Shown here: piece by piece, positions 6,001 to 19,648 of the stretch
Layout of the letters: every line of letters begins with the position of its first letter
Position numbering within the stretch: position 1 is the first letter of the stretch
Made by a program: the position numbers and the translations under genes
Virus record (IMG/VR): IMGVR_UViG_3300034410_000474
Coordinates: 1-64,000 of that record
Reading direction: 5' to 3' (one strand)
Origin: a virus
Lineage: Duplodnaviria; Caudoviricetes
Length of the DNA: 64,000 nucleotides
Notes under the pieces: generated by a model
What the model saw: only the letters and a program-made list of their open reading frames with translations
Database searches by the model: none
What the model was told of the DNA's origin: nothing

Positions 6001-6446
6001 CATATATTGATAACAACGGTCTTTATGTCGGTACTGCTACTTCAGCTCGCTGGGCTGACCTTGCGGAAAGATATACCGCTGATGCAATCTATGAAAATGC
6101 AACTGTTATGGGTATTAACATTGATGGTGATTCTGAAGTTACTAAGTGGGAAAAGGGAATGCCTTTAGCAGGTGTTATCTCTACTAATCCAGCTGTTCAA
6201 ATGAACGATATGGGTATTAAACCAGGAAGTAATTCTAAGAAAGCTAAAATGAATCCATTCATTGCTCTTAAAGGACGTATTCCAGTCTTAGTAGTTGGCG
6301 ATGTTAAGAAAGGCCAATGGGTAATTCCAGCTGGTGATGGTAAAGGTAAAGGCGTAGACTACGGAACTCCTGGTATAAATAGTTATGATATAATTGGTAT
6401 TGCAGTTGGCAATAGTGAAAATGGTGAAGTAGAGGTTAAAGTATAA
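1..6446 (+). CDS. Long modular tail fibre / receptor-binding protein (5' end probably outside the window)
   Basis: 2143-aa G/N/S/Y-rich ORF from 15, but the frame is open back to the window edge. About 15 copies of an (A/S)P(I/R)(F/Y)YD.NNT.YY.DP.S.S spacer. C-terminal SARWADLAERY...GVISTNPA...IALKGRIPV resembles the auto-cleaving chaperone domains of phage fibres. Confidence 0.8.
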   Translation, partial: NNFTMYNSGATGIFSALSSGDFIINNDSTTYTVSDNTALVGSISNNKLHVDGSIQLNGANDAIVFGNGTSTFLKDEELGFGWGGGLYMTEATTMKIRNNKNLYTTGNITGTRFYDTDANYYLDPAGDSQLNTIDIDDYIRHRGDTNTYIGFDANDRFRIWTGGTQRVNIDNNSADFGVNVYAPRYYDSNNNNYYVDPAEDSIMNSIILDDWIYHNGNTDAYFGWAGNNNFKVYTNGTQRFNIDANSADFAVNVYAPRYYDSNDNLYYVDPASTSRMNNVTFGIPGNGANTKGRYLSIEGNTDSSGEGSARIFFAEHNSSTASQDKYGMALAYQGGSATVNSVTGQPVTLNGLSNGTWGLIGHNNSINGAWAMRGPRSGDYVEARGSFRAPIFYDSNNTAYYGDFASTSIMNVVRAHQYQMDVSGRYIDSPSGNYGTIKVEGDTGGWAGYAIRDDWVFMSNGTANAGIYNDTRNEWSLQAQDNSWTRLYANGVHQLSAQNGYGYAPTSMRSPIFYDHDDTTYFGDFASRSKLKTLELGNQGNLTGSGSYPLGIWHNNRYLAGMRNSGAGANYPWLVHDNYNFNQTGSKDAFIVHFNGIGDKLYLDEAGNMLITGEMAASNYNLNAGNENISLNPSYGVGKTEFKLFDGAKYWEKRAIQALQGNEDSPTGTTGEYVKSTDAPAPASYVLRTSAYRTFYSDYIEVQPGEEVYGEMYVKRISGSGGLFYYGIERFDKDKKPIAGNTGTTYFVGGGNNVTSTSWQKFSGYTTVPTTHTVFSGSDGQGCRYVRMRVLMNYSGGGALREFTPPILMRTKVPSRIRTDESVYSPIYYDSNDTSYYLDPNATSKLSTVDASNFRDRDNTARFMNPNSGGNVQGNWNWNNGSITKLNNLTFNDPGVNEGIKWEGGSLWQIYESPDNQTNAAGNLQFTSGSGNGTRRLTLNGSGDAIAGRYMDAYRFRDRDNTGYYVEPASTSVMAEIYVNDYIRHNGDTNTYLRFPGNDDMQLVAGGRQMLRMAEGTNPDRLRFVTDSNWTDSSGNWAMSGNITVSGIGYSLASARSPIFYDYNNTNYYGDFASTSRMNVINANMYTLNDGWDIYDDNGETLNIRSNNSDHGYIIFRDSNSTDCGRIEFDDDNFFGLKTPANEWGVYIENNARVYTYYNGTWEERTAPGYMEARGSYRAPIFYDSNDTGFYANPNATSRFRDLTTLGVINTPGVTGYAGALLRRDNRTIEPNDDPAGQLKFGFGSWNNNNTAPWADYLHLRSYTDSSGGSDNLLMFKKSGRGMRLYQQSWNSGSVYSAYSDLAIYNANPGGGSNAYFYASRYYDSDDTGYYLDPNSNSRIKHLKVAATSANARYDFAALEVRELNHAGAQSANAQTAPRIGFHWGGRVASQIMLETNGEIQIRNNPGTGYEDFRAQIGYFQGDVRAPRYYDSNNTGYYGDFASTSVMNTIDNRGEIYNDGWFRNDVSGRGLYNTATAMHWYSTGSNAWRAYSTASTVRIDMHTSGNNRRGAFYANNSNEVGILSQDDGWALQTTNSKVDSHHNFYAPIMYDRNDSNYYVDPNGTSRMNQVRANYFTNDGGASSNDLFGLYWDSGRSQAYAIFRESGGWSYPYPDLRIAFHTGIKFGANASYQGMRFYTDYNMSGQVMSINNGSDPLGGGNVYVNNNLQAGSSLRAPIFYDSNNTGYYFDGASAHSTRFEGVSARTMAYTNKPGHTRNSGDYYRSRPRQTGDSNYWTGASGWGRQDMNVVGTWGSGFIDSWSNPPNQPSGTSHWVGTQAYHYRSSNTSGYGWQMVGGPIENLRFRSSWAGWRSWRTIPMLGVNNGNGAAMYASIYYDSNNTGYYCDPSSFSNFNSGMRATEIYARNWFRNDNSREGMYNSATGSHSYSYQGQYWAITGNNNSSSMSLQLRAAYNGTMCRWMYGDRTWSGDLNAAGQWQFQTRHTDGYSPSLRFIESGNESWTGNIGNDAGKLEYHSNRFYLEAGGNSNRIVQFRRNGSNRSYIDNNGLYVGTATSARWADLAERYTADAIYENATVMGINIDGDSEVTKWEKGMPLAGVISTNPAVQMNDMGIKPGSNSKKAKMNPFIALKGRIPVLVVGDVKKGQWVIPAGDGKGKGVDYGTPGINSYDIIGIAVGNSENGEVEVKV

Positions 6447-6447
6447 G

Positions 6448-6825
6448 ATGGCATCATATGCAACATTGAATAATAATATGCAAACACAGTGCGGGCGTCA
6501 GCTTCGTACGTTTGATAGGACTATGCTATTGAGAGTAAACGTTTACGTTCGTGGAACTGGTGTAACGAGTTATACTTCAGGCGGAAACTATTATCATAGA
6601 TTTGAATATGTAAACGCTTCATATTCTGTGTATAGTAATTATTTGTATAGTAGAATTTATACTGGTCAGTTAATTTATGACCAGGATGTTCAAGCATCTA
6701 TTACAAGTGTTGTAAGAAGAACAGTAGATTTAATCGAAGGCAGAATGAGTAATAGAACGGTTAACGCTTATCTATGCCATGCAAGTTGCCATTCTTCATG
6801 CCATTCATCGAGAGGTAGACGCTAA
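6448..6825 (+). CDS. Cys/His-repeat protein 1 (C-terminal CHASCHSSCHSSRGRR); candidate radical-SAM substrate or fibre-associated protein
   Basis: Starts 1 nt after the fibre stop, with GAGG SD upstream; clear paralog of 6825..7208. The function is inferred. Confidence 0.75.
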   Translation: MASYATLNNNMQTQCGRQLRTFDRTMLLRVNVYVRGTGVTSYTSGGNYYHRFEYVNASYSVYSNYLYSRIYTGQLIYDQDVQASITSVVRRTVDLIEGRMSNRTVNAYLCHASCHSSCHSSRGRR

Positions 6826-7208
6826 TGACTATGGATAGAGGTGACGTCAACTCGTGGGTTCAAAGCTACGGTGGAGGTCAATTAAGAACATTTGATAAAA
6901 CTGTAAGGTGGAGAGTTAATGCATATGTTAGAGCTACGAGTGGAGCTTGGAGTTATACAACAGGTGCTAACTATTACCATAGGTTTGAATATGTGAATGC
7001 TTCAAATAGCATATATAATAACTATGTAGATAGCGGTATTAATTCGGGTAACATTATTTACCCACAAGATATTGTTGATACTATGGAAGATTTAACAAGG
7101 AGAACTGTAGACGTGATAGAAGGTAGAATTAGTAATCGTACAACGAATGCTTACTTCTGCCATGCGAGTTGTCACTCCAGTTGCCATTCATCGAGAGGTA
7201 GACGCTAA
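6825..7208 (+). CDS. Cys/His-repeat protein 2 (paralog; identical C-terminal 16 aa)
   Basis: TAATG overlap with the previous gene; shares QLRTFD, NYYHRFEYVNAS, RRTVD.IEGR.SNRT.NAY and CHASCHSSCHSSRGRR. Confidence 0.75.
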   Translation: MTMDRGDVNSWVQSYGGGQLRTFDKTVRWRVNAYVRATSGAWSYTTGANYYHRFEYVNASNSIYNNYVDSGINSGNIIYPQDIVDTMEDLTRRTVDVIEGRISNRTTNAYFCHASCHSSCHSSRGRR

Positions 7209-8383
7209 TGTCAATGCAAAAATCATACTGTAGACAAATGAAATATTCAGGGCCGGATATGCTTCCACCTTCGAATGCATATAAGTATGATATTCTAATT
7301 CAAATGGAAGTATTGTCTGGATGCGAACAAGCTTGTCTAGGTTGCTTTGTAGATAAGAATATTGATGCATCGATGAATCAACAAATTATTGATAGAGCAA
7401 AAGAATTAGCCGATGGCGTTAAACGTACTGGCATGAATCTAAGAGAATTTGTTATAGGTCCAACCGATATATTTAGTGCAAGCAATACTGAAAGAGTTTT
7501 AAATAACCCAGTTGTACATGATATTATGCGAGAACATGAACATGCTCGTATCGCTGCTCCTGCAAAGTTTGATGTAGCAACTATGGAACGTGTACAAGAA
7601 ATATTTGATATTCTTGATGACGAAGATAAATTTAGACGTGAAATGATTATCGAATTTATTATGCCAATTGGTAAAATAGATCAAATGCTTAATGATATAG
7701 TTTATCACCAAGAAGTAATGCGCAAAGTTAAATTTTTTAAAGAGAATACACCAAAGCAAATGGATTGGTCTTGGACGTTACAAGCATCTAATGTTGTTGG
7801 TAAGAAAATAGATAAAGAAACATATAACAAAATTCTAAAACGTTCAGTAAGAGATTACGAAACAATCGTTGAAATGAACCCTGCATTCTCAAGAGCTCGT
7901 AATCAGTTAATTCAACGTAGTAATTTAATGGGTTGGAATAATTGGCTAGGTAACGTTATTGATGAAGATAATCATAACGAAGCTGTTATGTCAATGGCTA
8001 ATCTATATTGTAACTCAATTAACTTTATGGGAATAACAATTGTTCCTGGTAAAGATGGACCAACAACACACCTTAATGTAAACTTATATGAACAAGCATT
8101 TTTCCTTGAAAACAAAAATCTCGATGTTACAGGTTTAACGTTTGAAGAGATTTTAGATAGAAAAGACGAATTAGCAACTAAAGGAATAAATAAGTCTACT
8201 CAGGTAAAAGATTGTAATGGCTGCGAATATGCAGTAGCTTGCGCAAACAGATTAATATTCGAGGCACAAGATACATTAAATATTAATGGTTGTGTTCTTA
8301 ACAAAGATGTATTAGATCATTATAACCCGTACGATTTTACGTGGAATGATGATGCACTTAAAAAATTAGGAGAGGCTTCATGA
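7208..8383 (+). CDS. Radical SAM protein 1 (atypical, with C-terminal Cys cluster)
   Basis: CEQACLGC (CxxxCxxC); GPTD in place of GGEP; C-terminal CNGCEYAVAC...GC. Confidence 0.8.
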   Translation: MSMQKSYCRQMKYSGPDMLPPSNAYKYDILIQMEVLSGCEQACLGCFVDKNIDASMNQQIIDRAKELADGVKRTGMNLREFVIGPTDIFSASNTERVLNNPVVHDIMREHEHARIAAPAKFDVATMERVQEIFDILDDEDKFRREMIIEFIMPIGKIDQMLNDIVYHQEVMRKVKFFKENTPKQMDWSWTLQASNVVGKKIDKETYNKILKRSVRDYETIVEMNPAFSRARNQLIQRSNLMGWNNWLGNVIDEDNHNEAVMSMANLYCNSINFMGITIVPGKDGPTTHLNVNLYEQAFFLENKNLDVTGLTFEEILDRKDELATKGINKSTQVKDCNGCEYAVACANRLIFEAQDTLNINGCVLNKDVLDHYNPYDFTWNDDALKKLGEAS

Positions 8384-9474
8384 TTGGCCAAAGTTTATAT
8401 TACTTAAATAACAAAAAATATATTACCAATGTAACAAACGCTGGTACAATTGTTGATGAAATGAATAATTTTTATCATACAAAAGAACCTCGTCCTATTA
8501 AAGTAGTTCATCCATCAATGGAAGATACACAGCTTTTTGCAAGTCAAATGATGGTAGAGGCAGAAGCTAAAAGAACAGGAGTTACAGATTTATTTACTTT
8601 CCACAACTGGGAAGACGCAAATACAGTAAGTTTTATTGAAGATAACGAAAAATGTATTATTGCATATACAGATGAAAGTGATATGTTGCATGTCTTTGCA
8701 AGATATACCGCTGGTTTATTATATGCATCACAATTTTATGCTGACACAGAACATCAGGTTGATGCTATTGCTGCTCATTTTATTGAGAAAGTTGTAGAAT
8801 CTGATACTCTTTTAACTATTATGACTACATCAGATAGTTTAACTGACGCAAGAAATTATTGTACAACAGTATTATCAAACGCAGATACTCCAAGATATAA
8901 TGTTGCATATCAAAACGGTAAAAACTTTAGTTACGATTTATTATTCTTTTTACACGAACATTATCCATGTACAGCTGTAGCTAATCTTATAATTGAGAAA
9001 TTTACTGTTCATTCTAGCGAAATTGTTAAAGATGTTATGGAACAATTTACAGCACAACGTAGAGATATGGCTTATATCATATCAGTAATCGATTGGATGA
9101 ATACTAATGCAACAGACGCTAATGAATACACTACTGATAAAACTGCATTTATTAATAAAGTATTTGTAACTCCACATGTAAATGGAAATTGGACAGTTCC
9201 TTTCTATGCATTAAACGAGTTATGGGATAAAGTAAAAGACGATGCAGCATTTATAGCTGCACATACGAGTAAAACAAATCCAATCGGTGGTTGGGAATAT
9301 AATGATCAATATAATGAGATCAATCATTTAATACCTACAGTGAAAAAGGTATTAGAAAGAACTTGGAATGCCGATAATCTTACTGCTGAGCTTAAATTAC
9401 TAGATACTGATGTTCAATTCTTTTCGAGAAGGCAAAATAGGATTCCGTATCTAATACATAAATATACATTATAA
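8380..9474 (+). CDS. Hypothetical protein in the radical-SAM locus
   Basis: 364-aa ORF with ATGA overlap to rSAM1; no recognisable motif. Confidence 0.7.
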   Translation: MIGQSLYYLNNKKYITNVTNAGTIVDEMNNFYHTKEPRPIKVVHPSMEDTQLFASQMMVEAEAKRTGVTDLFTFHNWEDANTVSFIEDNEKCIIAYTDESDMLHVFARYTAGLLYASQFYADTEHQVDAIAAHFIEKVVESDTLLTIMTTSDSLTDARNYCTTVLSNADTPRYNVAYQNGKNFSYDLLFFLHEHYPCTAVANLIIEKFTVHSSEIVKDVMEQFTAQRRDMAYIISVIDWMNTNATDANEYTTDKTAFINKVFVTPHVNGNWTVPFYALNELWDKVKDDAAFIAAHTSKTNPIGGWEYNDQYNEINHLIPTVKKVLERTWNADNLTAELKLLDTDVQFFSRRQNRIPYLIHKYTL

Positions 9475-9492
9475 TATAGAGGTGATTATATA

Positions 9493-10302
9493 ATGAGTGA
9501 AAAAGAAAAACTAGACAATGAAGAAATGATTGATATGGAGCTTACTGATATTTCTCAGTTAAAATGTTATACGCTTCCATTATCGCCACAAGATCTCGTT
9601 GCAATTTATAAAGAAAAGGGTGAAGACTCAGAAGACGAATATGTCTTGTGGGTAAATTATGCCGATTCAAGATTAAAATTATCTCCTCAACATATTCTAA
9701 TTTATCTCGCAAATACTAATTTCAATACAACATTTTCTGCTATTGACGATGATCTGCTTATTGAATATATTAAAACAGATTTCTTAGTTAACGCGCCTCT
9801 TCTTTCTCGTATTCTTACTAATATTATTAAAACAAAGTTTGGACATCCATTAGCTCCATTAGAAAAAGAGTTATATAATATATTTGATGAAGAACGTATT
9901 ATTAACTTTATTAAGAACAATGGTGAATTGCTTGACGAAGTTGTAGAAAGCATTGCATCAGTAATTCCATTTAGTCTTGTAAAATTAAATGAAAACTTGT
10001 CAGAAGAAAACCAAGCAAAAGAAGTAGAACTGCAGGAAACATTATCAGAAATTAAAGTAGTTGATACAAAAACAAATTGTGGACCAAACGTTGCAATGAT
10101 GATTAAAGCAACTTGGGATGTGTTTCTTGTCATTACACATTATCGTGGATTAAGCTTAGAATATAATAAGAATCTTTATAACGATACTCCGAAGTATTAT
10201 GGTAAAGACTTATTCTACGTTTTAAATCATTCTAATATTGTTAATAACATATTAGACTTTTTCCCACCAGGATACTTCATAACAATCGATAAAGAAGAAT
10301 AA
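9493..10302 (+). CDS. Hypothetical acidic protein in the radical-SAM locus
   Basis: 269-aa ORF with GAGGTG SD; no recognisable motif. Confidence 0.7.
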   Translation: MSEKEKLDNEEMIDMELTDISQLKCYTLPLSPQDLVAIYKEKGEDSEDEYVLWVNYADSRLKLSPQHILIYLANTNFNTTFSAIDDDLLIEYIKTDFLVNAPLLSRILTNIIKTKFGHPLAPLEKELYNIFDEERIINFIKNNGELLDEVVESIASVIPFSLVKLNENLSEENQAKEVELQETLSEIKVVDTKTNCGPNVAMMIKATWDVFLVITHYRGLSLEYNKNLYNDTPKYYGKDLFYVLNHSNIVNNILDFFPPGYFITIDKEE

Positions 10303-10308
10303 TCTTCA

Positions 10309-11469
10309 ATGCCCATAATAAAGAATAATCTTTATCATGCACTTACAACTGAAACAATTACAAAACCTGTTTCTGCTGTTAAGCTGCAATTAGATGTTCT
10401 CGATGGCTGTAAACATAAATGCCCTGGATGTTTTGTACATCGAAGAGGTAATTCCAGTGATGAGAATCAATTTAAAGATGCAGTAAAATTTGTAGATGAT
10501 ATCGCATCTCGTGGTATTCTTATCGATGAAATCATTATTGGTCCTACTGACTTTTTATCATCAGAAAACTTCTATGAAGTAATGCCTCATTTAGTCGATA
10601 TGATTAATGAGCATTCTCCTATTTTAGCTTTTATTACAACTCTTATTGATGATGAACTTGAGCCTTGGGTTAAATGGCTTAAAGAAAGTATTAACTTAAA
10701 TACTGAAATAGAGATAGGTATCGCAATTGATCCTCATAAGTTTCAGAATCAAATAAATTACGTCGAAAATATTAAACGTAAACTTAATTATATTAGTGAT
10801 AATGTAGAGCATGATGTTGTTTATACGTTCTTACTTAATATTAAAGACTATGGTTTAGACTATCAAGTATTGCATGCTCAAGCAGTAAAAGAGTTTTCCA
10901 CAACTATAGACTTTATCCCGTCAGTGTCTCGATCAGCGAGGCCTCACATTACTTTAGCAACTATCGATAAATTTAACGAATACTTTAATATATTAGCCGT
11001 TGGAGACAAGATTAATAATATTATGGTAGATCATTCGCACGCTGGTATGAATTATACAGTCCTTAATTACAAGAAAGGTAATTGGTGGTTATCGCCATTT
11101 ATGTATGAGAATATGGCTGTCGAAGATGATGTGTTTAAAATCGAAAAGTTTGAAGATATACAATTAGTTACTGAATCTCAAATAGAAAGAGCAAAGGGTA
11201 CAGAATGCGAATCATGTCCTATGTTCTTCTCATGCTATAACAGGAAAATTATCTTATTAAGAGATTATCTTGGAGTCAAACGTTGTATTGCACCTAAAGA
11301 AAATATGATAAATAACCTGCACAACTTTGATAGTGCAGCACAAGAAATGTATAACTGGTCTGAATATACGCCAGAAGCAGATAAGAACGGATACCGTAAA
11401 AAGTTTACACTTACTGACGATACGAATGGTAAAGAACTCAATCGAATAAAGAGTATTTTTTACACTTAA
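10309..11469 (+). CDS. Radical SAM protein 2 (paralog of rSAM1)
   Basis: CKHKCPGC; IIIGPTDFLSSEN; C-terminal CESCPMFFSCYNR...RC. Confidence 0.8.
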   Translation: MPIIKNNLYHALTTETITKPVSAVKLQLDVLDGCKHKCPGCFVHRRGNSSDENQFKDAVKFVDDIASRGILIDEIIIGPTDFLSSENFYEVMPHLVDMINEHSPILAFITTLIDDELEPWVKWLKESINLNTEIEIGIAIDPHKFQNQINYVENIKRKLNYISDNVEHDVVYTFLLNIKDYGLDYQVLHAQAVKEFSTTIDFIPSVSRSARPHITLATIDKFNEYFNILAVGDKINNIMVDHSHAGMNYTVLNYKKGNWWLSPFMYENMAVEDDVFKIEKFEDIQLVTESQIERAKGTECESCPMFFSCYNRKIILLRDYLGVKRCIAPKENMINNLHNFDSAAQEMYNWSEYTPEADKNGYRKKFTLTDDTNGKELNRIKSIFYT

Positions 11470-11472
11470 CCG

Positions 11473-11501
11473 TTTACATTTTGCAATTTATATGTTATAA
11501 T
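11473..11501 (+). promoter_or_regulatory. Sigma70-type (early) promoter inside the rSAM locus
   Basis: TTTACA-17 nt-TATAAT with extended -10 (TGtTATAAT), upstream of the GGAG SD of 11523. Confidence 0.7.
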
Positions 11502-11522
11502 GGTATCATTATGGAGTAGTAC

Positions 11523-12005
11523 ATGAACTTTAATGAGTTTGAAGAATTTGTATTAAGTGAAAAATGTTTCAATAACCACGACGTTTCTTATATAGACGAC
11601 GATGGATTGCAGCACTATTTGACTTATGATTCTTATTACGAGTACCATCCTAAAATTATGCATCAGCTCTTAATGACTAATAATACAATTAAAGTCGAGC
11701 AGATGGAAAGACATTACGGATATATAAATCAAACGGCACATGTTTTCTTTAACAAGAAAGATGGGCCTACTTTTGGTGTGCATACAGATCCTGTAAAAGT
11801 TATTATAGAATGCTTAGATGGAACTAAGTATATGGAAGTCGAAGGAAGAGAAGTTGAATTAAGACCTGGAGAATACGTTCATATTCCACCGAATACAGAA
11901 CACCGGGCACTAAATTATAAAAAGGCATTGATGGTAAGTTATGGCATTAGCGACACAGAAACACTTGATGGTATACGTGAAAACAACGGAGACATGCAAT
12001 CTTAA
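11523..12005 (+). CDS. Cupin/JmjC-like Fe(II) oxygenase
   Basis: FGVHTD (HxD) plus distal HIPPNTEHRA; double-stranded beta-helix pattern. Confidence 0.65.
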   Translation: MNFNEFEEFVLSEKCFNNHDVSYIDDDGLQHYLTYDSYYEYHPKIMHQLLMTNNTIKVEQMERHYGYINQTAHVFFNKKDGPTFGVHTDPVKVIIECLDGTKYMEVEGREVELRPGEYVHIPPNTEHRALNYKKALMVSYGISDTETLDGIRENNGDMQS

Positions 12006-12981
12006 TTGTTCTCATTGTTTCACGTCTGGCAGTAAAGGTAGAAAGATATATTTTAAACCAAAGGAAACCGCCGAATGGTGCAATGGTTTAGATAGTGACT
12101 CATGCGATAAAGCTATACATTTCGAGTATCACGGCGGTGAACCTATGCTTGCTCCGATGGAAGATATTATGGAATTCTATAATATTACTAAGCAACACTG
12201 GGGCGATCGTTGTACTCACGGAATTACTTCAAATCTAGTATTTAAAATAAAAGACGAGCATCTTAAGTTCTTTAAAGAATGTATTACAGGTGGATATGTT
12301 GCTACATCGTGGGATCCTAATATACGATTTGCAAATGAGAAACAGCGTAAGCTTTGGGAAGACAATGTTAAGATGTTAGTTGCCGAAGGTTTAGATATTA
12401 AATGTTTTATATCAGTATCTAAAGACGTAGTTGCTATGGATCCACTTGAAATTGCTGATTATATGCATTCACTTGGTATTGTTGATATATCTTATGAGCG
12501 TTTAACTCATAACGGTAATGCAACAATCAATATGGATATATTTCCACATAATAGAGAACTCGATGATTTCTGGATGCGTATGCATCAAACAACAAAAGAT
12601 CATCCTGTAAGTAATTCATTCTTAGAAACTGTATACGCTAAATTTGATAAAGAAGCAGATACAAGAGCTGGTACATTCTGTAGAGATTGCGAACAAAAAC
12701 TTCATACAATTAATGCTGATGGTACTATCGCAGGTTGTCCAAATTCTGCCCCTACAGATCACTATGGACATATCAGTCAACCAGTTCCAAAGGTTCGTGG
12801 ATGCTTTAAGCGTATGGAAATTATTGCACAAGAGTTACACGTTCGTGATATGAGATGTTATTCATGTCCTGTATTTGATATATGTCACTCTGATTGCCAT
12901 CAATTAGAATGGATGGATGATGTATGTCCCGCTCCTAAGTCATTAATGTTAGAGTTGGCGAAGGAAAAGCAATGGATCTAA
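11941..12981 (+). CDS. Radical SAM/SPASM protein 3
   Basis: TCNLNCSHC, HGGEP, SPASM-like CRDC...GCP...CYSCPVFDICHSDC. Confidence 0.9.
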   Translation: MALATQKHLMVYVKTTETCNLNCSHCFTSGSKGRKIYFKPKETAEWCNGLDSDSCDKAIHFEYHGGEPMLAPMEDIMEFYNITKQHWGDRCTHGITSNLVFKIKDEHLKFFKECITGGYVATSWDPNIRFANEKQRKLWEDNVKMLVAEGLDIKCFISVSKDVVAMDPLEIADYMHSLGIVDISYERLTHNGNATINMDIFPHNRELDDFWMRMHQTTKDHPVSNSFLETVYAKFDKEADTRAGTFCRDCEQKLHTINADGTIAGCPNSAPTDHYGHISQPVPKVRGCFKRMEIIAQELHVRDMRCYSCPVFDICHSDCHQLEWMDDVCPAPKSLMLELAKEKQWI

Positions 12982-14039
12982 TTATTAAGCCTACCGAGGC
13001 TTGTAACTTTAAATGTAGCTTTTGCTCGTCTACTGCGATCGATCCTGATCATGCAGGATTACTCGACTTAGATTACATCTATAAGTTTTTAAAACGATAT
13101 CCAGATACTGCTACTATTATTGTAAATGGTGGCGATCCATTAATGGTAGATCCAAGCTATTATTGGAAACTTATCGATCATTTAGATGAACATAATTATC
13201 CCGCAACTATTAGTTTTACAACTAACCTATGGCCGTTTCTTATTAAACCAAAGAAGTGGGTAGATCTATTTAATCATGATCGATTAGGTATTTGTACATC
13301 ATTTCAGTATGGTGGCGGTAGATTAAAAGGTGATTTCTCAGAATTTACTGAAGCAGATTTTTGGTTGTGCTCGGATGCAATGCTTAAACACTGTGGTTAT
13401 AGACCAGATTTTATTGCAGTTATTGTCGAAGAAAATATCGATGATGCTATTAAGAACGTAGAACTTGCTAAGGAAATGGGAGTTGTTTGTAAACTTAATT
13501 ATGCAATGGCTTCTGGTATTCAAGGTACAACATTACAGTTAAGTAAGATATACGATCTATATGTAAAGATTTACGATATGGGTCTTGCTGATTGGGAATG
13601 GAATACTCAGCAAATGATGAAACGACTTGGTGGTTCTGCAACTACTTGTCCACAAAATAGAAACTGCGATTCAGGTATACGTGCATTAAATCCTGGTGGT
13701 GACTATTATTCGTGTGGCGCATTTGGAGATGATATGGATTATCCTATTAATTTCCAAGAAGAAGTTATTGATAATGGTCCTTTGCAAACTCCATTGCAAT
13801 TAGATCCAAATATTCAATCAATGAAAACTGCATGTTTTACTTGTCCTATGTTCCAGATCTGTAATGGTTGTAAGAAAACAGTCCGTGATATGAAACGAGA
13901 AGGAACAGTAGAATCTCATTGTAGACAAATGAAAACACTTGCACCAAGAATATTAGAGATTAATGGACTTGATCCTAATAGTGTAACACCTTATGTTGAC
14001 GAAACACCTGATAATATGATCGCAATAGCTAATATATAA
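12972..14039 (+). CDS. Radical SAM/SPASM protein 4
   Basis: ACNFKCSFC, NGGDP, CPQNRNC...YSCG...CFTCPMFQICNGC. Confidence 0.9.
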   Translation: MDLIIKPTEACNFKCSFCSSTAIDPDHAGLLDLDYIYKFLKRYPDTATIIVNGGDPLMVDPSYYWKLIDHLDEHNYPATISFTTNLWPFLIKPKKWVDLFNHDRLGICTSFQYGGGRLKGDFSEFTEADFWLCSDAMLKHCGYRPDFIAVIVEENIDDAIKNVELAKEMGVVCKLNYAMASGIQGTTLQLSKIYDLYVKIYDMGLADWEWNTQQMMKRLGGSATTCPQNRNCDSGIRALNPGGDYYSCGAFGDDMDYPINFQEEVIDNGPLQTPLQLDPNIQSMKTACFTCPMFQICNGCKKTVRDMKREGTVESHCRQMKTLAPRILEINGLDPNSVTPYVDETPDNMIAIANI

Positions 14040-14040
14040 T

Positions 14041-14943
14041 ATGAATATATCAATTAATCCTACTTATTATTGTAACTTTCGATGTGATTTCTGTTACTTA
14101 ACTGAAGCTCAACTTGCTGATAGGAATAAGATTAGTCCTGAAAAGCTTGATGAAGTATTAAGTAAAGTCACAGATCCAATAGAACATATTGATCTATATG
14201 GCGGTGAAATTAGCCTATTGACAAAAGAGTATTTTTATGATATAAAAGATGTGATACGTAAATATTATGATGGTGATATAAACATTAACACTAATTTTAG
14301 TGCATTACCAGATTACTTTTATGATGACGATATTACAATAAGTGTATCGTATGATTTTTCTGCACGAGAAAAAGAACAATTTGTTTTAAACAATATGATG
14401 GCTTCTCGTAAACCATTATCTGTTTTGATATTAGCATCAGAAAAAGTATTGGCAACTGATGTGGAGTTTATGATCTTTACATTAAACATGTGTTCACAGG
14501 TAAAATCAGTAGAAATCAAACCATATTCTACTAATCAAGCTAATGCGCATCCTGTAACACATCGAGATTTTGAAGAACATATTAAGAAATGGATTGACGC
14601 AAAAACTGAGAAAAGGTTTCAGTTTATTAACCAAGATCTAATAGAAGATGCTCTCGACGGTAATTATTCAGCGTTCAGTGATGATCATGTATATATAACA
14701 CCGAAGGGTAAATTTGGCGTATTGGAGTTCGATAAATACGATCGAGAGTATTTCAAAGAATATTCTACGTACGAAGAGTACAAGCAATGGGCAGCACTTG
14801 AGCCTATCAACAACGTATCTGATATCTGTAAAGCATGTCCATATTATGGCGGATGTTTAACAGAACATTATAGATATGTACGAGATTTAGACAACAGCTG
14901 TAACGGATATAGAGGATTATTAGATTGGTATGATGGGAAATAA
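14041..14943 (+). CDS. Radical SAM protein 5 (short C-terminal Cys cluster)
   Basis: YCNFRCDFC, YGGE, CKACPYYGGC...SC. Confidence 0.85.
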   Translation: MNISINPTYYCNFRCDFCYLTEAQLADRNKISPEKLDEVLSKVTDPIEHIDLYGGEISLLTKEYFYDIKDVIRKYYDGDININTNFSALPDYFYDDDITISVSYDFSAREKEQFVLNNMMASRKPLSVLILASEKVLATDVEFMIFTLNMCSQVKSVEIKPYSTNQANAHPVTHRDFEEHIKKWIDAKTEKRFQFINQDLIEDALDGNYSAFSDDHVYITPKGKFGVLEFDKYDREYFKEYSTYEEYKQWAALEPINNVSDICKACPYYGGCLTEHYRYVRDLDNSCNGYRGLLDWYDGK

Positions 14944-15340
14944 TATGAAAAATTGGAAAGCAAGTCAGGCAGCGTATCACACCGCAAACAAAAGCTTTAA
15001 AGATGATTTAACAGACGAGGATATAGTCTATTCAGAAGATATCGTTGAAGATGTGTTAAGGCACTTTGTAGAATATGTTGATGAGTGGATCTATCCTGCA
15101 AAATCATATGTAGTAGGTATATGCTATGCTAAATGGTTAGAACGAGATTTTGGTGAGGATTTTTACGAGGTATTGGACGATCCAGATTTGTTATTTGGTA
15201 ATGACCCATACTTTGTTCCTTATTCAGAAGATGAACAAGTATATGAAGCAATATTAAGAGAACTTGATTTTAATGAAGATTTAGGAATGGTTCCTGATAT
15301 TCACGAGTATTATCGAGAGGAAATGTTTTTTGGTAGCTAA
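14930..15340 (+). CDS. Acidic hypothetical protein between rSAM5 and rSAM6 (start may be 14945)
   Basis: 136-aa D/E-rich ORF overlapping both neighbours. Confidence 0.7.
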   Translation: MMGNNMKNWKASQAAYHTANKSFKDDLTDEDIVYSEDIVEDVLRHFVEYVDEWIYPAKSYVVGICYAKWLERDFGEDFYEVLDDPDLLFGNDPYFVPYSEDEQVYEAILRELDFNEDLGMVPDIHEYYREEMFFGS

Positions 15341-16448
15341 ATTTCCAAACGGTTCGTTAATAATGACAGATCGTCAGCGTAACAGCGGGCTAGTTAATCC
15401 TGCCGATCCTGAAGCCGATGCAGTAACTAAAATTATCCTTGAGGATAAGAGACCGGATATCGGCGAAATAGAGTTGACTCTATTTGAAAATTGTCATTTG
15501 AACTGTTTCTTTTGTCACCACGACAAACAATCAACAGTAGGATTATCAAGAGAAGAAATATTCTCTAAATTAACCCTTGTTGAAGATCATCTTATTAAGA
15601 TGAAAGGCCGAGCTGATGTTGTACAAATCAATATGGTCGGTGGAGAGTTATTTCAAGATAGAATATCTGAGTGGGCATATCCTGTCTATTATGATTTTTT
15701 AATTGAAATTAAAAAGTTATATGATAAGTACGATCATAATATTAAAGTCGTATGGGTAACATCATTTCAGTTTGTAAAACGCGATAGAGTACAAAAACTT
15801 ATCGATGATTTAAACGCTGCTGATATACCGTCATATATAATATGTTCATATGACTTTGATGGTAGACCTGTTAAAGGACCATATGGTAAGAATATAGAAT
15901 ACTTTGCAGATTATATTACATCGATTAATATGGTTGCAACTGTACCTTCTATTGAAAAGTTTATGGAAGACAAGGACGAGTATTTCCATTATCTATATGA
16001 GAAGTTTGATAATTTCTACTTTGATGATTATATTCCTGATAAAGGCTTTGATCATTTAATACCAAGCGATAGTTTATATCTCGAGTTCTTAAAATTCGTA
16101 TATCACAACTATCCTGATATTAATCCTATCAAAGATCTAATATATAAAGATAAGAACCATATGCATTGCTTGTCATTAAATAAGGTTACGATCTTTCCAG
16201 ATAATAGTACATCTAATTGTCGTTGGGATAGATATACTCCTGAAGATTTCAATACGCCATTACATAGAAAAGATAACGCGTCAATGATGCAAGCTTATAT
16301 GAATGAGCATGGATGTTTATCTTGTAAATGGTGGGATAAATGTGGTTTTAGATGTTATACACAATGGGATTGGAAAAATCGTGAACGTGATTTACCTGAT
16401 TGTATTATGCGAATGTGGTTTAATTATATGGAAAAAGATAAATTATGA
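15330..16448 (+). CDS. Radical SAM protein 6 (start may be ATG 15363)
   Basis: NCHLNCFFC, VGGE, CLSCKWWDKCGFRC...DC. Confidence 0.85.
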   Translation: MVAKFPNGSLIMTDRQRNSGLVNPADPEADAVTKIILEDKRPDIGEIELTLFENCHLNCFFCHHDKQSTVGLSREEIFSKLTLVEDHLIKMKGRADVVQINMVGGELFQDRISEWAYPVYYDFLIEIKKLYDKYDHNIKVVWVTSFQFVKRDRVQKLIDDLNAADIPSYIICSYDFDGRPVKGPYGKNIEYFADYITSINMVATVPSIEKFMEDKDEYFHYLYEKFDNFYFDDYIPDKGFDHLIPSDSLYLEFLKFVYHNYPDINPIKDLIYKDKNHMHCLSLNKVTIFPDNSTSNCRWDRYTPEDFNTPLHRKDNASMMQAYMNEHGCLSCKWWDKCGFRCYTQWDWKNRERDLPDCIMRMWFNYMEKDKL

Positions 16449-17143
16449 AGTTAGATTTTTATACATTTGATAAGACGTTACTTGAGTTATTACCAGTTAA
16501 AAGAAAAGTACAAAATCCATCTTGGTGGAGTAAACTTAAAAAGTTTTATTATGAGTTTGATGTTAAATCAGGTATTAAGGTACCGGCTCCTACTGTTAAA
16601 CTCTGTCCTGGCGTTGCAGATTATATAAGAAACTCAATCGATATTAAGTTGTGGTCTGATGTTATTTTTAAAATAAAACCTAATGGACAAGTAACAAGCG
16701 CTAGTCCACTTACAGATGAAGGTAGAATGCATGTGTCATTACATTCTGATGATCAAACAGGACCTGACTTATATAATGGTAGAACTGTTGTAAAACTTGC
16801 AAATCCTTGGGCTGTAAAAGCTTCGGATAGAACAAAGTTTCTTATTACAGAAAACCATTATAATGAAGAATTAAGAGAACATGGAATACTCATATCACCA
16901 GGATTAACTAATTTTTACGATCAACATGCTTTAAATATATTCTTAGTATTTCCTATTAAGGAAGAAGAGTATGAAGTAACACTTAACTATGGTACAACAT
17001 TAATGTCGTTGCATCCTATGACTGATAAACCAGTTGATGTTAAATGTAGTTTTATGAATCAAGAGAATTTCAACGGATTATTAGCAAACTTTCCTAATAA
17101 GTTCTTTGGAAGATATTATGCGAAAAGAAAGGTTACTGAATAA
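16445..17143 (+). CDS. Hypothetical protein
   Basis: 232-aa ORF coupled to its neighbours (ATGA and TAATG overlaps); CPGVADY motif; beta-rich by eye. Confidence 0.7.
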   Translation: MKLDFYTFDKTLLELLPVKRKVQNPSWWSKLKKFYYEFDVKSGIKVPAPTVKLCPGVADYIRNSIDIKLWSDVIFKIKPNGQVTSASPLTDEGRMHVSLHSDDQTGPDLYNGRTVVKLANPWAVKASDRTKFLITENHYNEELREHGILISPGLTNFYDQHALNIFLVFPIKEEEYEVTLNYGTTLMSLHPMTDKPVDVKCSFMNQENFNGLLANFPNKFFGRYYAKRKVTE

Positions 17144-17703
17144 TGGAATACTTGAATTTATGGCCAACAACAATTTTAAAAGGTAAATTTGATACCGACG
17201 GAATGGTTGACTATATACTAACCAACTATGATATAAATAATTTGCATTCCGAAACATCAGGCTATAATATGTTTGATAACGACCACAAGGTTTTAGATCA
17301 GTTTAAAGCCATGTGTTATAATCATTTTGATGATTATCTTACAAAGACTCTCGATAAAAAGATTTCTGACTGGGGTAATTATACTATGAAGGCTTGGCTT
17401 ACAGGCCACGGTAAAGATTACAATATGACTATACATAATCATTCAGGCGCTCATTTATCGGCTGTCTATTATGTATTGGCTGAGCAAGAAAATGCAGGTG
17501 GTGCGATCGTATTTTCAGATCCACGTACGAACGCAAATAGAGGTTTTGATGATAAGTGGGGAGTAATGTTTGAACAATTTAAACATGTACCCAAAACAGG
17601 AGATTTTATGATCTTTCCAAGTTTTACTTACCATCACGTAAATCCTTACCTTTCCTCACTACGGATGTGTATACCGGTAGATCTCTTTCTACACAGAGGA
17701 TAA
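17143..17703 (+). CDS. Putative 2OG-Fe(II) oxygenase (2OG-FeII_Oxy_5-like)
   Basis: HNHSGAHLSAVYYV ... PKTGDFMIFPSFTYHHV...R. Confidence 0.75.
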   Translation: MEYLNLWPTTILKGKFDTDGMVDYILTNYDINNLHSETSGYNMFDNDHKVLDQFKAMCYNHFDDYLTKTLDKKISDWGNYTMKAWLTGHGKDYNMTIHNHSGAHLSAVYYVLAEQENAGGAIVFSDPRTNANRGFDDKWGVMFEQFKHVPKTGDFMIFPSFTYHHVNPYLSSLRMCIPVDLFLHRG

Positions 17704-17707
17704 AACA

Positions 17708-17715
17708 TATAAATA
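17708..17715 (+). promoter_or_regulatory. T4-type late promoter
   Basis: Intergenic TATAAATA. Confidence 0.7.
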
Positions 17716-17791: not shown

Positions 17792-18208
17792 ATGGCTCTT
17801 ACATTAGAATACTCAATTACTAGTCTTAAAGTAAAAGATGAAGTAAACGCAGATGGCGAAACGCTGCCAAACGCAGTTGTTCAGACATATTGGAAAGTTG
17901 TTGGCACCGATAATGGTGGTAATACTTCTGATTGGGCTGGTGCAACTCCTTTCACAGCTGCTAACGTTCCTGCTGGTTCATTTACTGCTTTCGAAGACTT
18001 AGAAGAAGCAACAGTAGTTGGATGGGTTCAAGCAATCGTTGATGGCGATGCTGGTTACAAACAGCATATCACTGATCAACTACAACGTCAGATTGATGAA
18101 GATCTTGTCGAAGAACGCGCCATGCCTTGGGCTGAGGATGTTACACCACCTCTACCTGATGACGCACCTGGAGCAGAAGATCCCGCTCCTGCAGAAGGCG
18201 GCGAGTAA
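17792..18208 (+). CDS. Small virion/tail-fibre-associated protein (paralog of 18228)
   Basis: GGAG SD, late promoter upstream; Y.W.I..L...V..V.W pattern common near fibre genes. Confidence 0.55.
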   Translation: MALTLEYSITSLKVKDEVNADGETLPNAVVQTYWKVVGTDNGGNTSDWAGATPFTAANVPAGSFTAFEDLEEATVVGWVQAIVDGDAGYKQHITDQLQRQIDEDLVEERAMPWAEDVTPPLPDDAPGAEDPAPAEGGE

Positions 18209-18227
18209 TTAGATAAAGGAATCTATC

Positions 18228-18554
18228 GTGAATTATACTTGGAAAATTTCAAAGCTTGGATTAACTGATCAAATGAGTACAGACGACGTCTTACTCGAAA
18301 ATGCGATCGTTAATGTTAAGTGGAAAAGAATTGCGACAGATACTGATGGATTAAAAGCGAGTTACCTCGGTAGTACTGATTTGAATGCCGCTATTTTGGC
18401 GGCAGACTTTGTTGCATTAAACGATGTAACAGCTGAAAACGTTACTAGTTGGCTCGAGGCTGCAATAACAGCAAATGGAATTGCAAAAATCGATGCTAAA
18501 TTAGCAACAAAAATTGAACGAAAAAGATTGCGTAGTATCTCACCTTCCTGGTAG
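18228..18554 (+). CDS. Small virion/tail-fibre-associated protein (paralog of 17792)
   Basis: GTG start with AAGGA SD; NYTWKI...NAIVNVKWK...F.A..D.T...V..W. Confidence 0.55.
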   Translation: MNYTWKISKLGLTDQMSTDDVLLENAIVNVKWKRIATDTDGLKASYLGSTDLNAAILAADFVALNDVTAENVTSWLEAAITANGIAKIDAKLATKIERKRLRSISPSW

Positions 18555-18555
18555 A

Positions 18556-18563
18556 TATAAATA
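18556..18563 (+). promoter_or_regulatory. T4-type late promoter
   Basis: TATAAATA upstream of 18600. Confidence 0.7.
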
Positions 18564-18599
18564 AACTAAACAATCAATCTTTTATATTATGGAGGTGAC

Positions 18600-19646
18600 A
18601 TGCACGATTTGCATATGGGTGGCTTAGCGGCTTGGGCTTTGAAAAGAGGCGGGTCGCTCCATCCAATACTATTACCAAAATCGGTAACCGGTAATGAAAC
18701 CGGAATTATGAATCCGTCGATCTATTCCCACAAGGGAAAGCTTCTTCTTAACATAAGACATATCAACTATATTCTCTATCATTCAGAGGGTAAGCGGTTT
18801 CCACATCAATGGGGACCATTAGTCTATATTCATCCCGAAAACGACGTAACTTTAACAACTCATAACGTAATGTGTGAGCTTGACAATAACCTGAATCTTG
18901 CATCTGCTCAAAGAGTAGATATGGCTTTAGATACTGGCAAGCCTACGTGGAACTTTATTGGTTTAGAAGATGCTCGTTTATTTGAGTGGGATGATAAATT
19001 ATATCTTTGTGGCGTACGAAGAGATTGTTATGATGATAAAGGTACAGGTCGTATGGAACTATGCCATATTGATCAAGTAGATGGTAAATGGACAGAGATT
19101 TCTCGACATCCTATTCCAGCTCCTGGTGATGATGGTTCTTTCTGCGAAAAGAATTGGATGCCTGTTTTAGATGAACCTTATACTTTCGTTAAATGGTGTA
19201 ACCCAACTCAAGTCGTTAAGTTTAATATTGAAGAAGGTACAACTGAAGTTGTATATGAAGATACTTCAGAACGTGCACCATTTGAAAAAGATTTCCGTGG
19301 TGGTTCACAAGTATTAAGATTAAACGATGACCAGCGCATGGCATTCGTACACGAAACAAATCTATTAAGAGATCCCTTTGGTCGTAAAGATGGTGACTAT
19401 TCTCATCGCATATTGGTATGGGATAATGATTGGAACTTAATCCATGCATCTCGTAAATTTCATTTTATGGGTACGTTCTTTGATCATGTAACAGGTATTG
19501 ATTACAATATTGAGTTTGTTACTGGAATGTGCGTACATCCTGAAACTGGAGATATTCTGGTATCTTATGGATTCCAAGATAATGCTACGTTTATTTTAAG
19601 ACTTCCTCATAAGTTGTTCTTAGACTTTTTGAATAGTAAGGTATAA
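18600..19646 (+). CDS. Five-bladed beta-propeller glycosidase-like protein (GH130/GH43-clan-like)
   Basis: NPSI, GLEDARLF, EKNWMP and RGGSQ blade motifs. Confidence 0.6.
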   Translation: MHDLHMGGLAAWALKRGGSLHPILLPKSVTGNETGIMNPSIYSHKGKLLLNIRHINYILYHSEGKRFPHQWGPLVYIHPENDVTLTTHNVMCELDNNLNLASAQRVDMALDTGKPTWNFIGLEDARLFEWDDKLYLCGVRRDCYDDKGTGRMELCHIDQVDGKWTEISRHPIPAPGDDGSFCEKNWMPVLDEPYTFVKWCNPTQVVKFNIEEGTTEVVYEDTSERAPFEKDFRGGSQVLRLNDDQRMAFVHETNLLRDPFGRKDGDYSHRILVWDNDWNLIHASRKFHFMGTFFDHVTGIDYNIEFVTGMCVHPETGDILVSYGFQDNATFILRLPHKLFLDFLNSKV

Positions 19647-19648
19647 TT

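Follow-up and report, generated by a model that had tools for sequence, protein, structure and literature searches.

The present study concerns a gene cassette in a stretch of 64,000 nucleotides (hereafter, the window) of the IMG/VR virus record IMGVR_UViG_3300034410_000474, a tailed-phage sequence of 81.6 kb in total of which the window covers part. Two small proteins, chsA and chsB, that end in a repeated Cys-His-x-Ser tail are encoded here together with six radical S-adenosylmethionine (SAM) enzymes, directly after a giant fibre-like gene. Between positions 6448 and 17703, the list of open reading frames (ORFs) holds 14 ORFs, all on the + strand, with stops and starts that mostly overlap or abut. 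Following the fibre-like ORF, the genes are arranged in the order chsA, chsB, rS1, u364, u269, rS2, cupin, rS3, rS4, rS5, u136, rS6, u232 and 2-oxoglutarate (2OG) oxygenase. The listed frames of the cupin and rS3 share 65 nucleotides, and a later Met is possible as the start of rS3. A preliminary description made from the letters alone had reported one + strand run with two paralogs, a cupin, a 2OG oxygenase, four ORFs of unknown function and six CX3CX2C enzymes whose C-terminal parts carry Cys clusters, and all of these elements were confirmed. The phage is a marine, T4-like one, and the window also contains T4-type structural genes, for the tail sheath and its stabilizer, the large terminase, the portal and the major head protein.

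The Cys-His-x-Ser tail and its linkage to the cassette

First, the two small proteins share a distinctive end. chsA and chsB are 62% identical overall, and their last 16 residues are identical, CHASCHSSCHSSRGRR, that is, (Cys-His-x-Ser)x3 and then Arg-Gly-Arg-Arg at the extreme C-terminus. In the DNA encoding the two tails, five synonymous differences are followed by 27 identical bases, and each of the two stops overlaps the next ATG as TAATG. chsA matches PHROG 35144, a family of unknown function (E 1.9e-7), and 129 homologous clusters of chsB were found in metagenomes. The AlphaFold model of chsB (pLDDT 82.6, with the tail at low confidence) had no match in the PDB at E up to 0.001 using Foldseek. 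Neither megablast with the whole locus nor tblastn with chsB found anything among 50,697 phage records, in searches where the tail, being short and of low complexity, and very close records were possibly removed by filters.

The tail was back-translated into a degenerate DNA pattern, which was scanned against IMG/VR and against prokaryote contigs with one genome per species. The pattern was found in at least 119 IMG/VR stretches and 24 prokaryote genome contigs. At the first two Ser positions the pattern also admitted codons for Thr, Cys, Trp, Arg and Gly, and the Ser of the third unit was left free. Among the matches listed, which hold 115 distinct tails, Ser was invariant in the first two repeat units and was kept in the third unit of 108 tails, the residue before the first Cys was always hydrophobic, and the third position of the last unit was occupied by G (52), S (32), T (24), A (4) or N (3). 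In addition, a profile search of 1.84 billion representative proteins gave 101 tailed clusters at E up to 0.001; the match reaches the last residue in most full-length hits, a few hits being fragments or multi-stretch proteins. The N-terminal bodies that carry the tail range from approximately 100 to 541 residues and had no Pfam family match, and for the long proteins neither a Pfam domain nor a PDB relative was found. Tail variants were observed among the loci of rS4 homologs, including CHSNCHSNCHASRGRR, and Asn replaces Ser in some relatives. At three loci (L205, L206 and L207, near positions 5980, 7417 and 7426, respectively), the tail ends in CHSNCHGSCHGSI followed by the stop, without Arg-Gly-Arg-Arg. 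Since these variants exist without it, the Arg-rich end is not strictly required, and the variants with Asn and without the Arg end therefore define the core as (Cys-His-x-Ser/Asn)x3. A lanthionine-type or formylglycine-type reading of the tail was also considered and received no support from the sequence.

Second, tailed genes and radical-SAM genes are linked in both directions. Among the matches listed, and counting as testable the IMG/VR loci with enough flanking DNA, a radical-SAM ORF lies within 5 kb of the tail in 95 of 99 loci, a member of the u269 family lies up to 2.6 kb downstream on the same strand in 57 of 59, and a homolog of the fibre C-terminal domain ends up to 3 kb upstream on the same strand in 39 of 54. 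The reverse test started from rS4 homologs and used the 24 loci that are flanked by a full 10 kb on each side; the strict tail was present in 14, variants, including the CHSNCHSNCHASRGRR and CHSNCHGSCHGSI forms, were present in six more, and one further locus lies on a contig with two tailed genes farther away. The association of tailed proteins with radical-SAM enzymes exceeds chance. The preliminary description had asked whether the two kinds of genes occur mostly without each other; this is not so, as they are linked both ways across distant phages and bacteria.

The order and strand of the cassette genes are fixed, and two layouts are observed. Type A, as in the window, consists of the fibre gene, two tailed genes of approximately 126 residues, rS1, u364, u269 and rS2. 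Type B, the commoner layout, consists of the fibre gene, the cupin, rS3, one tailed gene of 177-309 residues, a u269-family gene, a gene for an unknown protein of approximately 370 residues, rS6, rS4, rS5, u136 and oxygenases. The cupin stands directly before rS3 in type B cassettes, and an rS3 ortholog stands directly before the tailed gene in most other cassettes. In the window, a type A module is followed by a type B module from which the original tailed gene has been lost, and the best sigma-70-like promoter match of the region falls at the joint between the two modules. A homology of u364 with the type B protein of approximately 370 residues was not supported (hhalign probability 13%, around a shared I-I-x-Y-x-D stretch).

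Third, the cassette has a wide range of carriers. Homologs of rS4 with 54-61% identity were found in cultured jumbo phages of several hosts, namely Agrobacterium phage Atu_ph07, Sinorhizobium phage Phosso, Pseudomonas phage pPa_SNUABM_DT01, and the Ralstonia and Burkholderia phages RSF1, RSL2, the FLC phages and SURPRISE13. In the four phages examined (Atu_ph07, RSF1, Phosso and DT01), the cupin, rS3 and a protein with the same tail are adjacent. Approximately 18 of the 24 genome-contig matches to the tail belong to Bdellovibrionota, on contigs of up to 1.29 Mb, where the cassette lies beside chromosomal genes such as those for PilM and an ABC-transporter binding protein. The Bdellovibrionota cassettes hold the tailed gene, the u269 family, rS3, rS4, rS5, rS6 and u136, and most also hold the cupin or the 2OG oxygenase. 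Thus, the lytic T4-like phage, presented in the preliminary description as a special setting, proved not to be one, the cassette being mobile and common to jumbo phages and Bdellovibrionota chromosomes.

Two variations of the cassette were also noted. In RSF1 and its relatives, an HNH endonuclease gene and two dihydrofolate reductase genes are inserted between rS6 and rS4 (L002 10691-11980, ORF076-078). Some Bdellovibrionota cassettes (L149:10153-11877 and L151:13572-15308) contain an extra B12-binding radical-SAM protein of approximately 575 residues, of the class B methyltransferase type, and its presence suggests a further C-methylation step in those lineages.

Enzymes, helper proteins and surrounding features

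All six enzymes carry CX3CX2C, at residues 11-55, together with C-terminal Cys clusters. rS3 and rS6 have the full CX2CX5CX3C together with upstream Cys residues, and rS4 has CX2CX5CX2C and another four Cys. In rS1, rS2 and rS5 the cluster consists of CX2CX5C and a single additional Cys only, and these four-Cys enzymes look like one-cluster, twitch-like forms rather than full SPASM proteins. Using the Pfam Radical_SAM model (PF04055, gathering cut-off 29.5 bits), only rS4 (35.9 bits) and rS5 (32.9 bits) scored above the cut-off; rS3 (23.8), rS2 (22.9) and rS6 (15.8) scored below it, and rS1 gave only a weak Fer4_12 match. With CX3CX2C in all six and a single tree joining the others to rS4 and rS5, the sequences assign all six enzymes to the radical-SAM superfamily. 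The SPASM model TIGR04085 (cut-off 27) gave 24.6 bits for rS3, 20.3 for rS4 and 13.5 for rS6, all below the cut-off.

The best NCBIfam matches of rS3 were DynA, AmcB, PapB, DarE, anSME and HxsB, all far below the cut-offs. rS4 was closest to anSME (TIGR03942, 44.1 bits against a cut-off of 349.45), and a phmmer search of PDB sequences with rS4 returned anSME only, with the N-terminus covered; the same search with rS3 returned nothing. The nearest curated families are therefore radical-SAM/SPASM maturases of peptides and proteins, including QhpD and the CXXX-repeat maturase, and the matches to QueE, NrdG and MoaA were weaker. A grouping with cofactor, DNA-base or tRNA families, which the preliminary description had named as a refuting outcome, was not seen. 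Because every family score is far below its cut-off, the class of enzyme, but not its chemistry, can be inferred. In a tree of 120 enzymes, rS3, rS4, rS5 and rS6 each formed one pure clade with members from the window, viral contigs, jumbo phages and Bdellovibrionota, and rS1 and rS2 together formed a fifth. Thus, the earlier count of six enzymes stands, but these make only five distinct orthologous groups, and the conservation of five paralog groups argues for five different steps and not for redundancy.

The cupin matched Cupin_2 with 36.6 bits against a cut-off of 27 (E 3.8e-9) and approached JmjC_2 (21.8 bits against 22), and the 2OG oxygenase matched 2OG-FeII_Oxy_5 with 51 bits against 27. 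chsA, chsB, u364, u269, u136 and u232 had no Pfam or NCBIfam match, and their PHROGs are families of unknown function. An iterated hidden Markov model (HMM) search gave 127 hits of the u269 family in 126 loci. The AlphaFold model of u269 reached a pLDDT of 91.2, and Foldseek together with a wider structure search gave no clear PDB fold (best Z 5.1 over 58 residues); compared with the radical-SAM structures ChlB, anSME, Elp3 and Cfr, the Z scores of 3.1-3.8 were within noise. No usable match was found for u136 in an Atlas search. A search for the recognition element (RRE, PqqD-like) of peptides that are made by the ribosome and modified after translation (RiPPs), suggested in the preliminary description, gave no Pfam or NCBIfam match among the 14 proteins, a structurally divergent element being possible, and there is no room for a fused RRE since CX3CX2C begins at residues 11-55. 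Pfam and NCBIfam scans found no protease or exporter in the cassette, and PADLOC returned only generic weak matches of the radical-SAM N-terminal region to viperin (pVip) models.

Table 1. Coordinates of the cassette genes and of the features beside them in the window
Feature	Position	Strand	Basis
Giant fibre-like ORF, 2143 residues	15-6446	+	PHROG and profile matches, weak
T4-late-promoter-like TATAAATA, 67 nucleotides before the chsA start	6374-6381	+	Consensus match only
chsA, 125 residues, ends in CHASCHSSCHSSRGRR, candidate substrate 1	6448-6825	+	ORF list, PHROG 35144
chsB, paralog of 127 residues, identical 16-residue tail, candidate substrate 2	6825-7208	+	ORF list
rS1, radical-SAM, CX3CX2C at residue 39, one C-terminal CX2CX5C(+C) cluster	7208-8383	+	Cys motif, tree
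u364, 364-residue protein, only in window-type (type A) cassettes	8380-9474	+	No Pfam/NCBIfam match; 22 loci
u269, member of a family of approximately 250 residues found after the tailed gene nearly everywhere	9493-10302	+	Iterated HMM search, synteny
rS2, radical-SAM, paralog group of rS1	10309-11469	+	Cys motif, tree
Sigma-70-like promoter match TTTACA-17-TATAAT, extended -10	11473-11501	+	11/12 positions; consensus match only
Cupin, borderline JmjC-like, candidate Fe(II) protein hydroxylase	11523-12005	+	Cupin_2 match
rS3, radical-SAM with SPASM-type Cys signature CX2CX5CX3C	11941-12981	+	Cys motif, TIGR04085 24.6 bits against cut-off 27
rS4, most conserved enzyme of the cassette	12972-14039	+	52-81% identity across phages and bacteria
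rS5, radical-SAM, one auxiliary Cys cluster	14041-14943	+	Pfam, Cys motif, tree
u136, acidic 136-residue protein, PHROG 20737	14930-15340	+	Kept in phage, jumbo-phage and Bdellovibrionota cassettes
rS6, radical-SAM, SPASM-type CX2CX5CX3C	15330-16448	+	Cys motif, tree
u232, PHROG 7084, rare among cassettes	16445-17143	+	Only 3 other loci
2OG-Fe(II) oxygenase, PF13759 / TIGR02466-like	17143-17703	+	Pfam/NCBIfam match

The TATAAATA-type motif occurs in 13 copies in the window versus 9.7 expected and is not enriched. Copies on the + strand at 17708, 18556, 21702, 28746/28769, 34351 and 36138 lie within approximately 100 nucleotides upstream of an ORF start, and the copies at 17232 and 30175 fall inside ORFs. 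After the cassette (17792-21639), the window encodes two DUF7936 paralogs (17792-18208 and 18228-18554), a 348-residue ORF and a 410-residue FkbM-/glycosyltransferase-like protein. At five other IMG/VR loci (L008, L026, L059, L104 and L106), these four genes and a 2OG oxygenase adjoin the cupin on the opposite strand, and two loci (L027 and L079) hold part of the set; since the full set is present in five other loci and part of it in two, it often travels with the cassette. Two further genes of the window are related to the virion. A gp15-type tail sheath stabilizer of 695 residues (24589-26676) matches its family at residues 4-241 and has a long C-terminal extension that matches virion structural and baseplate-wedge repeat families. 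A second fibre gene (46933-48909, - strand, 657 residues), which matches collagen-like and tail-fibre PHROGs, is located at a large distance from the cassette.

Fibre genes, phage particles and a proposal for tail maturation

The cassette is linked to fibre genes in both phages and Bdellovibrionota. The 2143-residue ORF matches a PHROG "tail fiber protein" family (E 5.5e-12) over a short stretch, and its last approximately 190 residues (5859-6443) give weak signals of a phi29 gp12-like auto-chaperone (IMC) domain, the reference for which is gp12 at residues of approximately 690-854. A profile of these residues and 26 homologs (27 sequences) matched the phi29 pre-neck appendage auto-chaperone at E 0.006-0.05 (3gqh and 6qz9 at 0.006-0.008) and the chaperone domain of the Klebsiella-phage tailspike Dpo31 at E 0.009-0.07. 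A weak Atlas lead to Peptidase_G2 agrees with these profile matches, and the C-terminal 348 residues (5400-6443) had no Pfam match at E up to 0.01. Of the tail-fibre label in the preliminary description, the position held, and the identity of the ORF rests on weak matches. In Bdellovibrionota, the cassette is neighboured by small proteins that carry Peptidase_S74, an intramolecular chaperone domain and the second C-terminal chaperone of the fibre type. In five Bdellovibrionota genomes (2.9-3.8 Mb), 9 of 21 Peptidase_S74 matches lie within approximately 10 kb of the cassette, including the sole match of one 3.7-Mb genome, and the chance of a single random gene lying that close is approximately 0.6%. 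Therefore, the cassette travels with fibre genes in two lineages that differ in both the fibre body and the type of chaperone. A 320-residue Bacteriovoracaceae protein beside one cassette (L150:18511-19470, - strand) combines a weak prepilin-type N-terminal methylation motif (18.3 bits) with Peptidase_S74 as an odd pilin/fibre hybrid.

A tailed protein has also been detected in purified phage particles. In the virion list of Atu_ph07 obtained using electrospray tandem mass spectrometry (PMC6102473, Suppl. Table S5), gp170 (31.89 kDa) is represented by 8 unique peptides and 35% coverage. This protein is the tailed protein of Atu_ph07, and the listed molecular weights agree with those of the identically numbered RefSeq genes. 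The list also includes the fibre-type protein gp176 (66 kDa, 14 peptides), which neighbours gp170, as well as gp177 (PMC6102473). It contains neither the radical-SAM enzymes gp165, gp168 and gp171, nor the u269-family protein gp169, nor the cupin gp172. In the gel, gp170 was detected in fragments 1-9, with the highest abundance in fragment 1, where proteins of 87-127 kDa were also found (PMC6102473); in our reading, which is not that of the authors, this could reflect an SDS-stable or covalent assembly. Between the virion component and the released effector offered in the preliminary description, the homolog in Atu_ph07 particles favours the former; the further suggestion that the small proteins occupy the position of gp38 at the fibre tip is a positional match only.

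Herein, we propose that the cassette carries out the enzymatic maturation of the tail of a particle-associated protein of the fibre module, which we regard as the probable explanation of the locus. First, the substrate would be the extreme C-terminus of a folded protein, here chsA and chsB, with (Cys-His-x-Ser/Asn)x3 usually followed by Arg-Gly-Arg-Arg. Second, a series of radical reactions in the cytoplasm would alter the His, Ser/Asn and Cys residues of this tail, resulting in cross-links. Each of the five RRE-less groups (rS3, rS4, rS5, rS6 and rS1/rS2) might provide a different radical step, the likeliest being the cross-linking of His to Ser/Asn and/or thioether-type cross-linking of Cys; hydroxylations might be added by the JmjC-like cupin and the 2OG oxygenase, and the u269 family, u136 and u364 might act as helpers. 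Third, the finished protein would join the particle in or near the fibre apparatus, where a rigid, possibly metal-binding or covalently linking end might increase the stability of the fibre or contact the host envelope. With RRE-less enzymes and folded substrate bodies, the system would resemble the protein-modifying members of the superfamily, such as anSME, more than the leader-dependent RiPP enzymes.

Several points weigh against this proposal. Modification of the tail, and with it its place as the substrate, the kind of chemistry, the order of the steps and the role in the particle, is what we infer from genomic and proteomic associations. The chemistry is not readable from homology, as all enzyme-family scores are far below their cut-offs, and three Cys and three His could bind metal without any modification. 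Radical-SAM enzymes are oxygen-sensitive, but O2-dependent oxygenases are encoded in the same cassette, and its carriers include phages from oxic seawater. Moreover, gp170 resembles chsA and chsB in its C-terminal part only, so the transfer of particle association to the proteins of the window is indirect. Atu_ph07 was purified using polyethylene glycol only, and the list contains non-structural proteins with 1-4 peptides, including ribonucleotide reductase, a RecA-like protein and terminase (PMC6102473); the evidence for virion association is therefore moderate.

A bolder version of the proposal, speculative and on the whole unlikely, would apply to phages and Bdellovibrionota alike. The tail might be converted into an end that is polycyclic, binds metal or links covalently, and by which the small protein is locked onto trimeric fibres after the C-terminal chaperone is cut off, resulting in an SDS-resistant tip, a "warhead" to attach to or breach Gram-negative envelopes. 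If true, this would represent a new class of post-translational chemistry in virus particles. Even the simpler proposal, in which five enzyme groups and oxygenases tailor a protein of the virus particle, would amount to a new kind of virion biochemistry and would account for the "radical SAM cassettes" that abundant marine phages carry in their host-recognition regions. The presence of the same kit beside fibre genes in predatory bacteria points to shared machinery for attacking Gram-negative cells. In addition, the invariant 12-residue core, with three repeats of a size suited to an enzyme, is a compact and testable substrate on which new radical chemistry of Cys, His and Ser is likely, and the cultured carriers (Atu_ph07, RSF1/RSL2 and relatives, Phosso and pPa_SNUABM_DT01) make the system directly testable.

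Four other explanations of the locus were weighed against tail maturation. The fixed spacing of the Cys and His residues makes a metal site plausible, and the tail might thus be an unmodified metal- or Fe-S-binding element, either a structural site or a donor of clusters or sulfur, with the radical-SAM enzymes acting on the fibre protein, a glycan or a small molecule. In many loci the cassette is linked no less tightly to the fibre gene than to the tailed gene, some cassettes travel with sugar-tailoring genes, and a glycosyltransferase-like ORF lies beside one Bdellovibrionota cassette. We nevertheless hold this explanation to be decidedly unlikely, since metal binding does not explain why the fourth residue of each unit is nearly always Ser (or Asn), an rS3 ortholog and the u269 family directly flank the tailed gene in most loci, and the nearest enzyme families modify peptides or proteins. 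Moreover, the tail is constant, whereas the fibre bodies are wholly different (G2-type in phages and S74-type in Bdellovibrionota).

The cassette might also encode a classical RiPP or peptide-derived cofactor, in which the body acts as a leader and the modified tail of 12-16 residues is cut off as a free effector, metallophore or redox cofactor. The pathways for pyrroloquinoline quinone (PQQ) and mycofactocin likewise combine a short C-terminal core, SPASM enzymes and oxygenases, and the NCBIfam matches of the enzymes include RiPP maturases. However, no protease, RRE or exporter was found in the cassette using Pfam and NCBIfam, the bodies are folded proteins of up to 541 residues, peptides of the body are abundant in Atu_ph07 particles, and the linkage to fibre genes recurs in two very different lineages, all of which makes a released peptide quite improbable.

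A conflict system functionally akin to HXS, in which the basic tail, once matured, would operate in the periplasm of the host on DNA entry, in superinfection exclusion or in counter-defence, has a precedent in HxsA, an HxS-repeat protein with basic residues that is matured by two radical-SAM enzymes and acts in the periplasm on the entry of phage DNA (PMC13128918). Phages and Bdellovibrionota both work in the periplasm of their prey. The chance of such a system here appears slight, as no HXS family model reaches its cut-off, the PADLOC matches are weak pVip matches of the radical-SAM N-terminal region only, no signal peptide or peptidoglycan-binding domain was noticed in chsA and chsB, and a homolog was detected in Atu_ph07 particles. 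Finally, radical-SAM genes, QueE or NrdG for instance, are often carried by phages, and the RSF1 cassette contains two genes for dihydrofolate reductase and one HNH gene, but auxiliary metabolic or nucleic-acid-modifying enzymes (for a DNA base, tRNA or cofactor) with the small proteins as unrelated neighbours are scarcely credible given the weaker QueE, NrdG and MoaA matches, which cover the N-terminal cluster motif only, the near-universal co-occurrence with the tailed gene both ways, and a location in the structural, host-recognition part of the genome and not with replication genes.

Comparison with known radical-SAM systems

The maturation of peptides by radical-SAM enzymes is well known. 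The maturation of whole proteins by these enzymes is, to our knowledge, rare, and the cases we know of are sulfatases, the QHNDH gamma subunit and, since 2026, HxsA. The preliminary description had related the locus to the CXXX-repeat, SCIFF/ranthipeptide and Hxs families; membership in these families was not borne out, as the scores of the enzymes are far below the cut-offs and none of the curated precursor models reaches its cut-off with the small proteins. Judged by curated models or target motifs, the locus of the window also falls outside the anSME family, as it does outside HXS and the CXXX-repeat systems.

By analogy, the closest functional precedent is HXS, in which radical-SAM enzymes mature a folded protein with HxS repeats. 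In that system, HxsB and HxsC mature the 214-residue effector HxsA, with a change of +8 Da mapped to an SHRSS motif in which neither His nor Ser is dispensable (Li et al., Nat Commun 2026, PMC13128918). Both systems combine several radical-SAM enzymes, a folded-protein target and His-x-Ser units beside basic residues, and the tail in the window has three tandem H-x-S units. Unlike in HXS, an invariant Cys opens each unit, the repeats form the extreme C-terminus, five enzyme groups are accompanied by oxygenases and other helper families, and the carriers are phages and predatory bacteria, with linkage to fibre genes and not to a defence locus. The HXS enzyme models gave only low scores, with 30.9 bits for rS3 against HxsB (TIGR03978, cut-off 370) and 22.3 and 17.7 bits for rS4 and rS5, respectively, against HxsC (TIGR03977, cut-off 267.9). 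No match to HxsA (TIGR03979) or HxsD (TIGR03976) was found at E up to 0.1 for chsA, chsB, u364, u269, u136 or u232.

The enzymes are also comparable to anSME (TIGR03942; PDB 4K36-4K39), a compact RRE-less radical-SAM/SPASM enzyme whose target is a Cys or Ser residue within a whole protein. In contrast to anSME, the sulfatase motif C/S-x-P/A-x-R is not kept, the last unit being C-H-(G/S/T)-S-R, no sulfatase is encoded here, and there are many enzymes instead of one. The Cys-rich thioether systems (CXXX-repeat, SCIFF/ranthipeptide PapB/CteB and QhpD) share the Cys period of four and SPASM enzymes with the cassette. Among these, QhpD cross-links a protein subunit, the QHNDH gamma subunit, and not a free peptide. 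The scores for these families were 21.9 bits for CXXX TIGR04115 (rS3; cut-off 350), 39.7 for the ranthipeptide model PapB (340), likewise far below the cut-off, and 22.4 for QhpD (453), and, unlike the substrates of these systems, the tail here has no Asp or Glu acceptor residues.

The His-x-Ser/Asn unit fits the aromatic-X-X3 substrate form of the His-directed three-residue cyclophane (triceptide) synthases HaaB and HtkB, the latter of which makes a bond from His-C2 to Lys-C-beta (PMC11499958). The triceptide-type models gave 40.4 bits for AmcB (cut-off 425), 21.3 for GrrM (310) and 23.9 for YhhB (445). The curated families that rS3 matches best are AmcB, DynA and DarE, SPASM enzymes that form cyclophanes or ethers, with approximately 40 bits against cut-offs of 425-650. 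However, the triceptide, AmcB, DynA and DarE systems are bacterial RiPP pathways with leader peptides, without a counterpart of the invariant Cys.

In the literature, no description of the cassette was found, only passing mentions, namely "radical SAM" annotations in jumbo-phage genome papers and a remark in a study of pelagimyophages (PMC7029224). The latter mentions radical-SAM gene cassettes beside the tail-fibre genes, varying within the host recognition cluster, and these are probably the same thing as the cassette in the window; the passages covered note their presence, and not a substrate, motif, function or distribution (PMC7029224). Thus, radical-SAM maturation is known in kind, and the substrate motif, the number of enzymes and the biological setting are what is unusual in the present locus.

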